This document shows positions 2,459-36,960 of a stretch of 64,000 nt of DNA, piece after piece (the stretch's first letter is position 1; each line of letters begins with the position of its first letter). Made by a program: the position numbers and the translations under genes. The notes below the pieces were generated by a model, which searched no databases, was not told where the DNA came from, and saw only the letters and a list, made by a program, of their open reading frames with translations. The stretch lies in IMG/VR virus record IMGVR_UViG_3300021376_000006. The stretch is one strand, 5' to 3'. This stretch comes from a virus (lineage: Duplodnaviria > Caudoviricetes).

Positions 2459-4855
2459 TTAGCCACCTAAGGCTTGTAATCTAGCCGCCAATTGGTCCAA
2501 AGCCTGTTGAATGTTAGTAATTGTGCCGTTGTAATTTGCTGCATTGTTTGGTGTATAACTTGCATTACCCAGAATATTTGATTGGAACAATGCAAGTGCG
2601 CCAATATTGGCGAATAAATCCGGAACATCAGCAATTGCAGTGCTTTGTGTTGAGCCATCTATAAATGTTAGATTACAATTAAAAAGTTCAAAATTTCCGT
2701 CTTTATTGATACCAACCAACGAAGTATTAGCTACCAAGAACACATTACTGTTTGTTCTCACTATGGCGTTACCACCAATCACATTGAAATATCCATCGTA
2801 AGGAGCTTCATTTAAACCAGTATCTCCAGTTGGTGGCGCAAAATTTCCACTAAAATTACTTGAGTTTATACCTATGTTGAGATATTTGTCACTGTCGTTG
2901 CCATCATCGGCAGTGATTACAAAGTCTCCTGAGGCGCTTGATCCAGTATTAATGTTTTGTATGACCACCTGATAAATACTATCAACATTTCCTACAAACA
3001 CACCGCCCAGACCTGGGTAGTTGATAGGATTGACATTACCTACTTCAAGTGTGGATCCTATTTTGACGTTGGCATTGGCTAACAAAAACGCCGCTTGAAC
3101 ATTGCCGTTAAACACAGCACCACTAAGGTTGGCACTATTGTTGATATTGGTATTAGCGGCAATTAAATTAGCGTTTAACAAATTAATCTGAACTGCCTGA
3201 CTGGCAGCATTGCTTTGTAACGAGGAGACATTAGTATTTGTACTGCCCAAGTTGGCATCAATCAAGATTATTCTAGCATTAGCCGCAGAAATATTTGCGT
3301 CTGATGAAGCAACATTGCTGAGATACAAATTTATATTTGCATATAAATTTTGTATATCTAATGCCTGAACTGCTGCATTTGATGTCAATGTTGTGATATT
3401 CAAGTTGGCCGCTGTTAAATTTGCATTTAACAAATCTAGCTGTACAGCCTGACCGGCACTGTCAGCTGTCAAGGTTGTGATGTTGGTGTTTGCCGCCAAA
3501 ACATTTGCATTTATTACGTCAATCTGTGATGCTTGTGTGGTAGCATTTGATTGTAAAGAAATTATATTTCCTTGTTGTGCCTGAGCATTACTTTGTAAAT
3601 TATCTAATTCTAAAGCTTGGATAGAAGCATTAGCTAGTAATGAAGTTATGTTTACATTAGCTGCTGTTACATTGGCATTAATAGACGTAATTGTTGTGGA
3701 TTGAGTTGCAGCATTGGCATTAGCATAAATTTGGTACGCACCAATATTTGCGTTAATGGTATTGATAGCCACAGCCTGTGTGGCTGAATTAGCAACAAGA
3801 TCATTAATAGATGCGCCTTGAGTGGCAGCGTTGCCTAAGAGACTGTCCAAATCCAATGCTTGAGATGCTGCATTAGATTGAAGTGTAATTATGGCTGCAT
3901 TTGCAGCAGACACATTGGCATTGATAGCTGCCACACTAATGGAAGCAATTACAGCGTTGGCAGCAGTTATATTTGCTCTCAATGCATTTATTTCTACGTT
4001 GGCAGCAGCCACTCTGTTGGTATTAGTTACAATAGCGGTGTTTGCTGCAGAAACGTTGCTGTTGGTTGTGTCTATGTAAGCAGCTAATATACCAGTGTTA
4101 CTTTGTAAATTGGTTATCAGTGTAGATTTTGTACCAAGATTGGCATCAATTACCACAATGCGAGCGTTTGCGGCCATAACGTTGGCATTTATAGCATCAA
4201 CATTTGAAGTGTTTATCGCAGCTATCACCAAATTTGCCGCTGTAATGTTCGCTCTTAGTGCATTTATTTCTACGTTGGCAGCTGCCACTCTGTTGGTATT
4301 AGTTGCAATAGCCGCATTGGCAGCAGTAATATTAGCACGTAATGAATCGGTTATTGATCCTGTAACATTTGCAAGATTAGCAGATATGGCAGCATTGACA
4401 TAGGCTTTGCTGGCAGCCTCAGTGATATTGTTGACAGTGAGTGTAACATTGCCTGTTAAACCATTTACTCTAAGTACAGGAGCCACAGGCACACCCACAA
4501 CCGACACTGTAGCAATATTGCCCACAGTGACATTTGCTAGAGTAGTCACTGTTAGTAAAACATCATTTAATGGCGTTGTACCTCCCAGAACATTGCCTTG
4601 GATAACATACACATTGCCAACCGTTTGCCCGGTGCCCCGTAGCACAGGTGCTGCTGCATAACTTTCTGTGTAACGGCTAACATTAAAGGTGATTCCGCTG
4701 ACATTGCAAGCAACGTTACCGTAGGTCAAACCTTCGTTATCTACAGTGCTGTAAAGCTCATCAAAATTTTCATTAATTTTGGTGAATGCATCGCGTAACG
4801 GATCACCTGTGCCATCACTAGCAGCAGCGCCAACATCAATAACTTGTTGTACCAT
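2459..4855 (-). CDS. Long coiled-coil tail fibre protein with gp9/gp10-like N-terminus
   Basis: N-term DGTGDPLRDAFTKINENF; about 400 aa of A/N-rich heptads (ANVTAAN, LQSNAA repeats). Confidence 0.75.
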   Translation of the reverse strand: MVQQVIDVGAAASDGTGDPLRDAFTKINENFDELYSTVDNEGLTYGNVACNVSGITFNVSRYTESYAAAPVLRGTGQTVGNVYVIQGNVLGGTTPLNDVLLTVTTLANVTVGNIATVSVVGVPVAPVLRVNGLTGNVTLTVNNITEAASKAYVNAAISANLANVTGSITDSLRANITAANAAIATNTNRVAAANVEINALRANITAANLVIAAINTSNVDAINANVMAANARIVVIDANLGTKSTLITNLQSNTGILAAYIDTTNSNVSAANTAIVTNTNRVAAANVEINALRANITAANAVIASISVAAINANVSAANAAIITLQSNAASQALDLDSLLGNAATQGASINDLVANSATQAVAINTINANIGAYQIYANANAATQSTTITSINANVTAANVNITSLLANASIQALELDNLQSNAQAQQGNIISLQSNATTQASQIDVINANVLAANTNITTLTADSAGQAVQLDLLNANLTAANLNITTLTSNAAVQALDIQNLYANINLYLSNVASSDANISAANARIILIDANLGSTNTNVSSLQSNAASQAVQINLLNANLIAANTNINNSANLSGAVFNGNVQAAFLLANANVKIGSTLEVGNVNPINYPGLGGVFVGNVDSIYQVVIQNINTGSSASGDFVITADDGNDSDKYLNIGINSSNFSGNFAPPTGDTGLNEAPYDGYFNVIGGNAIVRTNSNVFLVANTSLVGINKDGNFELFNCNLTFIDGSTQSTAIADVPDLFANIGALALFQSNILGNASYTPNNAANYNGTITNIQQALDQLAARLQALGG
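3984..4311. repeat. Direct repeat inside tail fibre (two near-identical ~50-bp copies at 3984-4035 and 4260-4311)
   Basis: Both encode TNTNRVAAANVEINALRANITAAN. Confidence 0.85.
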
Positions 4856-11562: not shown

Positions 11563-11593
11563 TAAAAAACGGGCACTGGCCCGTTTATTTTTT
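11563..11593. terminator. Bidirectional intrinsic terminator at the end of the tRNA array
   Basis: AAACGGGC-ACTG-GCCCGTTT flanked by A and T runs. Confidence 0.8.
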
Positions 11594-24207: not shown

Positions 24208-24281
24208 TGGAGCGGGTAGCGAGAATCGAACTCGCAAATAATCCTTGGCAAGGATTCAGGTTACCTTTACATCATACCCGC
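24208..24281 (-). tRNA. tRNA-Gly (GCC)
   Basis: Loop TTGCCAA, CCA. Confidence 0.95.
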
Positions 24282-24287
24282 TCGGTT

Positions 24288-24382
24288 TGGTAGTAGGCCA
24301 GGGATTCGAACCCTGTCGTTCCAGCCCATCTGACCAGTCTCCACGGTTTATAAGTCCGCGCCGCATACCAATGCTGCCTACC
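24288..24382 (-). tRNA. Atypical tRNA, anticodon TAT (Ile), 4-nt D-loop, long variable arm
   Basis: GGTAGGC/GCCTACT-A-CCA; D-arm GCAT-TGGT-ATGC; loop CTTATAA; CAGGG-TTCGAAT-CCCTG. Confidence 0.75.
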
Positions 24383-24393
24383 ATAAAAATAGC

Positions 24394-24458
24394 GCATCCT
24401 TGTTCCTAAAATTATTAGGTAGGAATAGTTTACAAGACCTTCTGTTCATCAAGGATGC
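24394..24458 (-). ncRNA. Stem-clamped candidate cassette
   Basis: GCATCCTTG/CAAGGATGC 9-bp clamp with inner TTCCTA/TAGGAA hairpin. Confidence 0.35.
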
Positions 24459-24541
24459 ATGATAAAACACATTCTTGGGTGCCCGTAAAGACCATACCCA
24501 TGGCCTCGAGCGCCATTATGTGTTTGAATGTGCTTTATCAT
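24459..24541 (-). ncRNA. Stem-clamped candidate ncRNA cassette
   Basis: ATGATAAAGCACATTC/GAATGTGTTTTATCAT 16 bp with one G-U; clamp resembles 21588-21673. Confidence 0.55.
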
Positions 24542-24639
24542 TCCTATTTTACTCCTGCGTTTTCGCCGACAGTTTCATCCAGGGCTCCGCCCGTTTGGCA
24601 AGTTATAGTGTTGCCGCAGCCTCGTTCCGCATCACACTT

Positions 24640-24804
24640 TTAGCGTCGTTCAGTTAGACGTCGCATTCGTTCTGCATCTTCATTTTGTTGACGCAGCCTT
24701 TCAATTTTACCTTTAACTAATTGTTCAAGCAATCTATCGTTAAAAACAAAATTACGCTCTTCTAACTTTTTTTGAAACGACACGATTTCTTTTTTGTTCG
24801 TCAT
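24640..24804 (-). CDS. Basic coiled-coil peptide (54 aa, not in track), first ORF after the attenuator
   Basis: AAGGA RBS; MTNKKEIVSFQKKLEERNFVFNDRLLEQLVKGKIERLRQQNEDAERMRRLTERR. Confidence 0.6.
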   Translation of the reverse strand: MTNKKEIVSFQKKLEERNFVFNDRLLEQLVKGKIERLRQQNEDAERMRRLTERR

Positions 24805-24811
24805 CGGTTCC

Positions 24812-24852
24812 TTTATAAAACAAAACCCCAGGGTGTGTAGTCCTGGGGTTTT
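24812..24852 (-). terminator. Intrinsic terminator (attenuator 3:4 hairpin) upstream of the tRNA array
   Basis: AAAACCCCAGG-ACTACACAC-CCTGGGGTTTT-GTTTT. Confidence 0.85.
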
Positions 24853-24874
24853 ATAGAATTTGGTTAATTAAAAC

Positions 24875-24997
24875 TTAGGTTCTATAATCCCCCAGGACAC
24901 GATTACTAATATCGCGTGTAATCATACCCCAGTAGGCGGTTAGCCCACATTCGGGTTGTGATATAAACGATTTACATAATAGTGCTGAAATCATCAT
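24875..24997 (-). CDS. Putative 40-aa attenuation leader peptide
   Basis: MMISALLCKSFISQPECGLTAYWGMITRDISNRVLGDYRT; 3' end holds GTCCTGGGG, complementary to the terminator 5' arm. Confidence 0.65.
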   Translation of the reverse strand: MMISALLCKSFISQPECGLTAYWGMITRDISNRVLGDYRT

Positions 24998-25004
24998 AGT
25001 CTCT

Positions 25005-25033
25005 ATACTACATTTATTTATAATTGTTGTCAA
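25005..25033 (-). promoter_or_regulatory. Sigma70 promoter (with embedded TATAAATA) driving leader/tRNA array
   Basis: TTGACA-17bp-TAGTAT, 7 nt before the leader ATG; spacer contains TATAAATA. Confidence 0.75.
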
Positions 25034-25044
25034 CCTGTAAAATG

Positions 25045-25854
25045 TTAATTATTTGTTAATACTTGATTATTTATCAATTGATAATAATTGTCAAAGTCGC
25101 TATTGGGATAAAACAATGCATACAGTTTAAAAGTTTTCTTTAAAAAAATCAAATTAAATTGCTGATGCCAGCCATGATCATATATTAAATCCAAAAACCA
25201 TTTGCTTTTTTTACTAGTGCCGTTGTCCAGTGCGAAAAAATTTTTAACAAAGCCCAAACCAAAATATCTTAGTTCTGTCACTTGATTAATATAGTTATCT
25301 TGTTCTATTTTGATAGAACCGTGAAGTTTTTGATAAATTTTGAAAATATTGTTGTTATGATGCGATTCATCTACTAGTAAACGATGAAACATTTTTGCTG
25401 TTTGTTGATTTTGACAGGTTTTGTATAGCAAATAAAAACCAGTCCAAAGATAGCACTCACCTACGTAGTATCTGGTCAATAACTGTGTAAGATTACTGGT
25501 TTTAAATCTATCCTGCGCCTGCATTTCTGTGCTATTTAAATCATGCTGCGAAACATCTTTGTTAAAATTATTTTTAAAAAAATCTAATAGCATCTTGGCA
25601 TGCACTTCTTCATCATGTATCATTCTATCAAAATATTGACAAATCAAATTTTGGCTTTCGTACGTTAAATTGAGATCATGATAGTAATTTTGTTTAAAAT
25701 TGTTTCTAAGTGCAGGATATACTAGAGTAGTTTCATATTCCCCAAGATAGGTATTGTACAACCAATTACAAATAAATTCGTTTTCGAATTGATCATACTT
25801 TTGTCCGAGAGATTTGATCGCTCGATTAGAAAATATTGGAGTGTTAAATTGCAT
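25045..25854 (-). CDS. Ferritin-like di-iron protein
   Basis: Paired ExxH motifs (DEEVH, DESHH) with upstream E residues. Confidence 0.65.
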   Translation of the reverse strand: MQFNTPIFSNRAIKSLGQKYDQFENEFICNWLYNTYLGEYETTLVYPALRNNFKQNYYHDLNLTYESQNLICQYFDRMIHDEEVHAKMLLDFFKNNFNKDVSQHDLNSTEMQAQDRFKTSNLTQLLTRYYVGECYLWTGFYLLYKTCQNQQTAKMFHRLLVDESHHNNNIFKIYQKLHGSIKIEQDNYINQVTELRYFGLGFVKNFFALDNGTSKKSKWFLDLIYDHGWHQQFNLIFLKKTFKLYALFYPNSDFDNYYQLINNQVLTNN

Positions 25855-36407: not shown

Positions 36408-36454
36408 GTGTTTAATCCAATAATGATTATCACAGTATTTAGTTCAATTTTGAC

Positions 36455-36830
36455 ATCCAGCCACTTCTGTTACCGAGCAGGCTGGGTCCATCTCTGAGTC
36501 TTAGTTTAGCTTAGGCAGCTAAACGAACCTCAAACAGCTCATCATTGGCTGCATTTATGGTTTTGCTTCTTTTACGGAGATCGCCTACCGTGTTGTCCAT
36601 ATCCTTACTTATTGCCCTGTCGAAACCAAATTCAGGCCCATCAAAAAGCATTTTCAAGGTGTCCCTCTCCGATACAACGAGGAATCGCTAACCTTGTCTG
36701 CCTTCCCCACTCTTATCAGCTTCCTCATACTTACCGTGGTGGGTCGTTATATCATCGGGCAAAATGCTTTTTGGTGGACCTGCCCGGGGTCGAACCGGGG
36801 TCCAGAACACCTTTCATTCAACTTCATACA
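36455..36830 (-). ncRNA. ssrA: Circularly permuted (two-piece) tmRNA
   Basis: Acceptor piece ...GGTTCGACCCCGGGCAGGTCCACCA (CCA 36772-36774) precedes coding piece GGGCCTG..GGTTTCGAC (from 36639); tag AANDELFEVRLAA* at 36552-36511; outer ends approximate. Confidence 0.9.
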
Positions 36831-36960
36831 ACAATTTTAATCTTTATTTTCTTTGACCCATTTGTAATAGATCAGTACGCATGCTAGTGTTATGGAACCT
36901 ATTAATAATACGCCCAATAAAAAACCAACTATAAAGTAAAGCTGCTCGGTTCCAATTTAC

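Follow-up and report, generated by a model that had tools for sequence, protein, structure and literature searches.

The 64,000-nucleotide stretch of DNA analyzed here (64 kb in all; hereafter, the window) belongs to a large lake-water phage, IMG/VR virus record IMGVR_UViG_3300021376_000006 (Caudoviricetes), which encodes 26-27 transfer RNA (tRNA) genes plus a transfer-messenger RNA (tmRNA). The phage has no close relative among deposited phages, and a blastn search with positions 24300-25500 against 50,697 phage records returned no match. Ahead of the tRNA genes lies a self-contained unit of ~220 bp that comprises a sigma70-type promoter, a 40-codon open reading frame (ORF), and two alternative hairpins that share one arm. 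We describe this unit as a candidate leader-peptide transcription attenuator, in which translation of the short ORF would decide between the two hairpins. Its parts, all on the minus strand, are as follows.

25033-25028 (-): -35 hexamer TTGACA of the promoter
25010-25005 (-): -10 hexamer TAGTAT, separated from the -35 hexamer by a 17-nt spacer and located 7 nt before the ATG
24997-24875 (-): leader ORF of 40 codons plus TAA (24877-24875), with an ATGATG start at 24997
24932-24948 (-): hairpin H1 (GUGGGC / GCCUAC), within the leader ORF, with a hypervariable loop
24899-24925 (-): hairpin H2 (AUGAUUAC / GUAAUCGU), within the leader ORF
24898-24880 (-): segment B, the 5' arm of the putative antiterminator (outer part GUCCUGGGG, inner part UUAUAGAA), formed by the last codons of the ORF
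24858-24840 (-): segment C, the 3' arm of the putative antiterminator, whose last 9 nt, CCCCAGGAC (24848-24840), double as the 5' arm of the terminator
24832-24826 (-): segment D, the 3' arm of the terminator, CCUGGGG, which pairs with C
24825-24817 (-): U-tract of the intrinsic terminator, UUUUGUUUU (DNA TTTTGTTTT), directly after D

The promoter, ATG, 40-codon ORF, complementarity and terminator were each found where an initial annotation, made from the sequence alone, had placed them on this strand, and a recount of the window peptide again gave 19 amino acid types and 30 distinct codons. The ORF has no Shine-Dalgarno site, and its mRNA is probably leaderless or nearly so. Downstream of the stop codon, the terminator (24852-24817) has the layout CCCCAGG, 9 nt, CCTGGGG, and then TTTTGTTTT, giving a G+C-rich stem of 7 bp, or 11 bp when its A/U extension is counted, followed by the U-tract. 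Near the end of the ORF, GTCCTGGGG (24898-24890) is the exact complement of the 5' arm of this terminator. The pairing first described between these two 9-mers holds, and its length has to be revised: a second, inner stem of 8 bp (24887-24880 with 24858-24851) adds to the outer 9 bp, such that the B:C antiterminator consists of two stems with a total of 17 bp and carries the leader stop codon in its loop.

The initial annotation also proposed comparing the energies of the two structures by folding. Folded alone, the B:C hairpin has a predicted energy of -26.8 kcal/mol, versus -12.5 kcal/mol for the terminator or -16.9 kcal/mol with the A/U extension, and the antiterminator is likewise preferred when the 205-nt region is folded as a whole (z = -4.15). 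In the window, three occurrences of the 9-mer and its complement were counted, where 0.07 would be expected. Because of this excess, the fold z-score, and the recurrence of the unit in more than 30 contigs, we regard it as beyond chance.

This recurrence emerged when we searched with peptides and profiles, looked up contigs and scanned for patterns; the unit was identified in more than 30 distinct freshwater contigs of metagenomic or viral origin, including two of 290 kb and 355 kb. All homologs examined but one (L041, with TAGACT) retain a -35 TTGAC, and the -10 hexamer varies (TACAAT, TATAAT, TACTAT, TAACAT or TATTAT) with unchanged spacing; 5' of the -35 hexamer, we found no sequence conservation among the homologs. 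In almost all of the contigs, the leader ORF comprises 37-43 codons. In the divergent homologs for which this was measured, the stop codon (TAA, TGA or TAG) precedes arm C by 26-31 nt; elsewhere, it lies at aligned positions. In the loci that were retrieved, a distance of 71-75 nt separates the leader stop from the start of a downstream ORF encoding 51-55 residues. Since the gene upstream of the unit changes between loci, we define the unit as promoter, leader, switch, the downstream ORF (54 residues in the window), and a structured RNA that follows it.

Our main RNA alignment contains 18 sequences. All terminator pairs are intact in 18/18 of these, with one compensatory change, and the antiterminator core is intact in nearly all of them. 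The most informative variants are the homologs L029 and L030, in which segment B changes from CUG GGG to UUA GGG with the encoded Leu-Gly unchanged, segment C changes from CCCCAGG to CCCUAGG (C to U at alignment column 159), and segment D changes from CCUGGGG to CCUAGGG. Because of this three-way change (G to A in B, C to U in C, G to A in D), both B:C and C:D stay paired. Among more distant relatives, an A-U pair in the inner antiterminator stem is replaced by G-C (L037), the internal loop of the antiterminator is closed through changes on both sides (L040), and in L042 the antiterminator is rebuilt from UGGGGUCU and AGACCCCA. The loops, by comparison, vary freely in sequence, and their lengths differ by 1-2 nt. 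As judged from this alignment, the terminator/antiterminator pair is genuine, conserved and covarying; the ORF/antiterminator complementarity that the initial annotation had suggested seeking in related phages recurs in the homologs, and does so with covariation.

In the cores of the two hairpins within the ORF, nearly all changes preserve pairing. H1 retains its inner four pairs, its outer pair is G-C, G-U or A-U (L030), and its outer two pairs are broken in several homologs. In H2, all one-sided changes except one preserve pairing (A-U to G-U, U-G to C-G, G-C to G-U); its loop varies in sequence and length, and the hairpin is hard to recognize in L042. H1 and H2 could act as pause signals, with H2 a possible RNA polymerase pause hairpin. 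A trp-like 1:2 anti-antiterminator, in which CUAUGAU at the 5' end would pair with AUUAUAG in B, was considered and not adopted: it comprises 5-7 A/U-rich pairs that are invariant and weak, with no covariation.

Several properties of the homologs suggest that the leader ORF is likely translated. None of the 87 substitution events inferred within the ORF creates a stop codon, although 5.1% of possible changes would do so (P about 0.01), and the other two frames contain stops in 20/20 sequences. At the DNA level, indels in the ORF are all 3 nt long (at least three sites), compared to 1-2 nt in the neighboring non-coding loop. In every homolog the ORF is kept open and its stop lies inside the antiterminator loop, as the initial annotation's proposal would have it, and lineages in which the flanking sequence has been exchanged still carry this stop at the same position with respect to the hairpin.

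The composition of the leader peptide is equally distinctive. Among 27 distinct peptides, 16 contain all 20 amino acids, 10 contain 19, and one contains 18. By comparison, only 0.3% of 40-residue windows drawn from the phage's own long ORFs contain all 20 amino acids, and 4.3% contain at least 19. The first 28-33 codons alone already specify 19-20 types in 15/21 leaders (20 in two of them), a diversity at which 0.17% of 30-residue windows from the phage's own proteins reach 19 and none reaches 20. We also performed a code-aware randomization, in which each observed non-synonymous event was redirected to a random codon at equal mutational distance and events were treated as independent; only 5e-5 of trials retained the observed mean diversity. 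Lineages that are only 20-45% identical to the consensus retain 19-20 types, with per-sequence P values of 0.004-0.05 in six of nine, and Glu, Lys, Gln or Val, when lost, is regularly supplied from another position. The leaders contain no codon runs of the kind that mark classical attenuators, and most amino acids appear once. The sampling of many amino acids first noted in the window peptide thus extends to its homologs, which keep 18-20 types (mostly 19-20) in peptides of 38-43 residues despite strong divergence, and do so even at 20-45% peptide identity. We consider this a good but not conclusive case, made from the sequences, that the completeness of the amino acid set is under selection.

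We propose that the unit is probably a ribosome-mediated (leader-peptide) transcription attenuator whose leader is stocked with essentially all amino acids, most of them encoded by one codon each among the first 30. In this model, transcription would start at the sigma70-type promoter, about at the AUG (24997). In the emerging RNA, segment B could pair with C to form the 17-bp antiterminator, with the stop codon in its loop; alternatively, C could pair with D to form the intrinsic terminator. An undelayed ribosome would cover B while C and D emerge, such that the terminator forms and a leader RNA of ~180 nt is released. A ribosome delayed within approximately the first 30 codons, or the lack of any ribosome, would leave B:C free to form, and RNA polymerase would continue through the 54-residue ORF, the structured RNA (~250 nt), the odd tRNA(UAU) and tRNA-Gly, and perhaps beyond. 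When we refolded the leader with the ribosome footprint masked, A-site positions up to codon 30 gave the antiterminator, and positions from codon 32 to the stop left B covered and gave the terminator. Most likely, the signal would be an insufficient supply of any single tRNA in charged or intact form, or generally slow translation. We infer three elements of this model: translation of the ORF, the ribosome's position as the determinant of the fold, and the physiological signal.

Several points weigh against this model. Both the transcription start and the point of termination are predicted from sequence. The leaderless start is an assumption, and in some homologs a single AUG lies 8-11 nt after the -10 hexamer. 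Within the ORF, codon-position bias is weak (22, 28 and 37 events at the three positions) and is absent from the first 14 codons. The conserved residue blocks AYW, ITR, SNR, LG and YR coincide with RNA stems, such that the RNA largely accounts for the conservation of the peptide. As to completeness, lost Cys, Phe, His and Trp are mostly not regained, the simulations rely on the assumed independence of substitution events, and the leader codons cognate to the phage's own tRNA anticodons (17/40, compared to 47% expected) show no enrichment. In the RNA, L025, L027 and L037 each carry one internal antiterminator mismatch, the strength of the hairpin varies between homologs, and in L027 the antiterminator is no stronger than the terminator. 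There is also no convincing 1:2 anti-antiterminator, such that the untranslated fold defaults to read-through. Finally, a leader with a single codon per amino acid is expected to give a weaker response than classical codon runs (PMC1183508). A leader of this type would respond weakly to mild starvation, and would respond to the severe loss of one tRNA.

Structurally, the unit has the parts of a known attenuator: a short ORF directly behind the promoter and placed for ribosome blocking, and an intrinsic terminator, one arm of which is also used by an antiterminator. Like the trpL, hisL, leuL and ilv leaders of enterobacteria, it has a promoter-proximal short ORF and a terminator ahead of structural genes, its antiterminator shares a terminator arm, and the proposed logic is the same, with a fast ribosome leading to termination and a stalled one to read-through. 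Unlike these amino acid operon leaders, it contains no runs of codons for a single amino acid and instead uses essentially every amino acid once or a few times. It also differs in having three segments rather than four, with read-through as the untranslated default, in being phage-encoded and probably leaderless, and in carrying, instead of biosynthetic enzymes, a cargo composed of one small protein together with a structured RNA and tRNA genes. Two Rfam leader families gave matches below their gathering scores: His_leader (RF00514; 23.3 bits versus 49, E = 0.77) and the rnk_pseudo leader (RF01772; 24.7 bits versus 55, E = 0.31).

Two further groups of regulators resemble the unit in what they sense. 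The bmrB-bmrCD system of Bacillus subtilis (PMC4191407) and the mef/mel leader (PMC4335068) are ribosome-mediated attenuators that sense general translation stress. As proposed for the unit, they combine a leader ORF with a terminator/antiterminator pair, and stalling at any amino acid turns on the downstream genes. They differ from the unit in that they are bacterial, are triggered by antibiotics that target the ribosome and regulate genes for efflux or resistance, with no reported selection for completeness and no sequence similarity to the unit. By analogy, bmrB-like general-stalling attenuators appear functionally closest to the unit. T-box elements and the pheST leader (pheM) likewise couple the state of the tRNA pool to read-through of genes for the translation apparatus. 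A T-box, in contrast, binds one uncharged tRNA without a ribosome and controls synthetase or amino acid genes, and pheM uses Phe codons only. Neither the window, searched at E <= 5, nor four homologous loci, searched at E <= 1, gave a T-box match.

It has long been asked why phages carry near-complete tRNA sets, and to our knowledge the regulation of phage tRNA genes is essentially unknown. In full-text searches of the literature, we found no report of phage tRNA genes under the control of a leader peptide, nor of an all-amino-acid leader. Phage tRNAs are reported to replace host tRNAs destroyed by defense nucleases (PMC10264068, PMC11464382, PMC11555353). Against this background, we give slightly less than even weight to the further idea that the ~40-codon, all-amino-acid leader serves as a test of the whole tRNA pool, such that the loss, cleavage or non-charging of any tRNA would switch on a rescue module. 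If this is the case, the module would consist of a small protein, a new structured RNA, the unusual tRNA(UAU) and further phage tRNAs, and possible triggers would include host anticodon nucleases, to which the link is purely one that we infer, or the phage's own shut-off of its host. The phage would then measure decoding capacity and respond on demand, and the leader would represent a new design principle for attenuation in which breadth takes the place of codon runs.

Since the promoter, ORF and terminator form a self-contained set, the locus can also be read as an ordinary small gene, encoding a 40-residue protein or a dual-function small RNA of ~180 nt, in which a leaky terminator yields short and long transcripts in a fixed proportion. 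In this case, the role of the long hairpin would be limited to stabilizing the RNA or tuning termination, and it would sense nothing. Expression traces are compatible with this reading and with the attenuator alike. No RNA run was listed for the window itself; among three metatranscriptomes with small shares from relatives of the window phage, one contains two short contigs of relatives of approximately unit length, corresponding to ~24999-24808 and 24985-24822, or roughly from the promoter start to the terminator. These contigs give a weak hint that a leader-length RNA exists; the 54-residue ORF and the cargo RNA are covered by separate contigs in the same metatranscriptome. In none of the runs did the contigs cover 25008-25300, a gap that we do not count as evidence. 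A conventional small gene would also account for the partial conservation of the peptide. Set against this is the architecture of the hairpin, whose 3' arm is common to the terminator, with both pairings covarying at one column, and which keeps the stop codon at a fixed distance within its loop in every lineage, rebuilt sequences included. In addition, the conserved residues fall on RNA stems, with hypervariable codons in the loops, and selection for completeness has no obvious meaning for a folded 40-residue protein. Neither the 40-residue nor the 54-residue product has a usable match in Pfam, PHROGs or Atlas, the 40-residue product has none in any other family, and a profile search against 1.84 billion proteins returned only the same small family. 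We therefore consider it unlikely that the unit is simply a small gene.

The presence of two conserved hairpins ahead of the switch raises the question of whether a trans-acting factor, rather than the ribosome, sets it by acting on H1 and H2 or on the antiterminator. This factor could be a small ligand, making the unit a riboswitch, or an RNA-binding protein; the basic, Arg- and Lys-rich product of the 54-residue ORF, which always accompanies the unit, would be a candidate for autoregulation. We judge this quite improbable, since the RNA has no conserved unpaired core that could bind a ligand, the loops and junctions of H1 and H2 vary freely, H2 is barely recognizable in L042, and no Rfam family, including any riboswitch, matches at threshold. 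A trans-acting factor would also leave unexplained the maintenance of the reading frame, the restriction of indels to 3 nt, the fixed stop and the completeness of the peptide. A third reading, in which the 40-residue ORF encodes the precursor peptide of a modified natural product and the leaky terminator yields excess precursor transcript, draws on the proximity of radical SAM and SPASM genes to the unit, seen in the window as well as at several homologous loci, and on the fit to modified-peptide clusters, where a leaky terminator behind the precursor gene is a common layout, but it is very hard to sustain because the terminator is invariably followed directly by the 54-residue ORF, the RNA and tRNAs and never by a maturase, the radical SAM genes are missing or on the opposite strand in several loci, the peptide shows scattered variable sites and no conserved division into leader and core, and an antiterminator would not be needed.

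Returning to the attenuator model, we examined what read-through would transcribe. The initial annotation had the tRNA array directly following the terminator; this is incorrect, as the 54-residue ORF and the structured RNA intervene. In order of transcription, the features behind the terminator are as follows.

24640-24814 (-): Shine-Dalgarno AAAGGAA and ORF of 54 residues (24804-24640), the first gene behind the terminator
24391-24638 (-): structured non-coding RNA of ~250 nt, with several covarying helices in an alignment of 18 loci
24291-24383 (-): tRNA of 93 nt with a long variable arm, anticodon UAU and encoded CCA, the first tRNA behind the unit
24208-24281 (-): tRNA-Gly(GCC), the second tRNA, followed by a promoter-like site at 24193-24164

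The 54-residue protein is rich in Lys, Arg and Glu and probably helical, with the consensus MTNEQEILSFQKKLEERNFV...; a scan of genome contigs with this protein found nothing, and hence gave no clue to the host. The cargo RNA is conserved in the homologous loci that extend far enough. One of its helices, of 14-16 bp, appears in three sequence versions, and its 9-bp closing helix appears in four. Interleaving of GGCAA/UUGCC with GUGU/ACAC suggests that the RNA contains a pseudoknot. It has no Rfam match at E <= 5. The 54-residue protein and this RNA are probably tied to translation stress.

The long-arm tRNA(UAU) directly follows the cargo RNA in most loci. It has a G1-U72 pair and scores 29-32 bits against the Rfam tRNA-Sec model, with 32 bits for the window copy, compared to a threshold of 47. 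ARAGORN misses the window copy and calls the homologs tRNA-Ile(tat), with lengths of 92-95 nt. A long-arm tRNA that reads AUA might carry an amino acid other than Ile (cf. PMC5389517).

The initial annotation further proposed that the unit gates the entire tRNA array, a claim that we find to be only partly tenable. In its favor, no other strong minus-strand intrinsic terminator lies between the leader and 11586-11567, just past the last tRNA; by the criteria used here, this is the only other such terminator in 27200-11000. Against it, internal sigma70-type promoters lie on the minus strand at 14202-14174 (12/12), 21825-21797 (11/12) and 12856-12828 (11/12), the first two of them immediately upstream of tRNA genes. 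Such promoters had been listed at the outset as a possible refutation, and they are present and near-consensus; several transcription starts therefore serve the array. Moreover, a 171-residue ORF lies on the plus strand inside the array, the 290-kb relative has three tRNA genes upstream of the unit, and the invariant downstream partners of the unit are the 54-residue ORF and the structured RNA, not tRNAs. The unit thus probably controls the proximal block, and adds to the expression of the remaining array without being its sole gate.

The hairpin at 11567-11586, which reads on both strands, is a perfect G+C-rich stem of 8 bp with T-runs on both sides, consistent with a bidirectional terminator. 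The scan for minus-strand terminators in 27200-11000 revealed no further leader cassettes within the array.

Upstream, the unit is located in a variable island of host-like metabolic genes. In the window, the preceding gene (25045-25854, minus strand) encodes a 269-residue rubrerythrin-like protein with a ferritin-type di-iron fold, and a pattern scan of metagenome contigs with this protein as the query found nothing. Relatives have GDSL-lipase-like, CMD, peroxiredoxin, fatty-acid desaturase, AMP-binding or carrier-protein genes in the same position. In two homologous loci (L016, ~3880-3925; L034, ~1235-1265), a G+C-rich hairpin with a T-run lies just upstream of the -35 hexamer and insulates the unit from the gene before it. 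No terminator of this kind is present in the window, where transcription may therefore read in from the upstream gene. Elsewhere in the window, positions 36420-36864 (minus strand) encode a permuted tmRNA with the tag peptide AANDELFEVRLAA, as identified by ARAGORN, such that the phage carries its own ribosome-rescue RNA.

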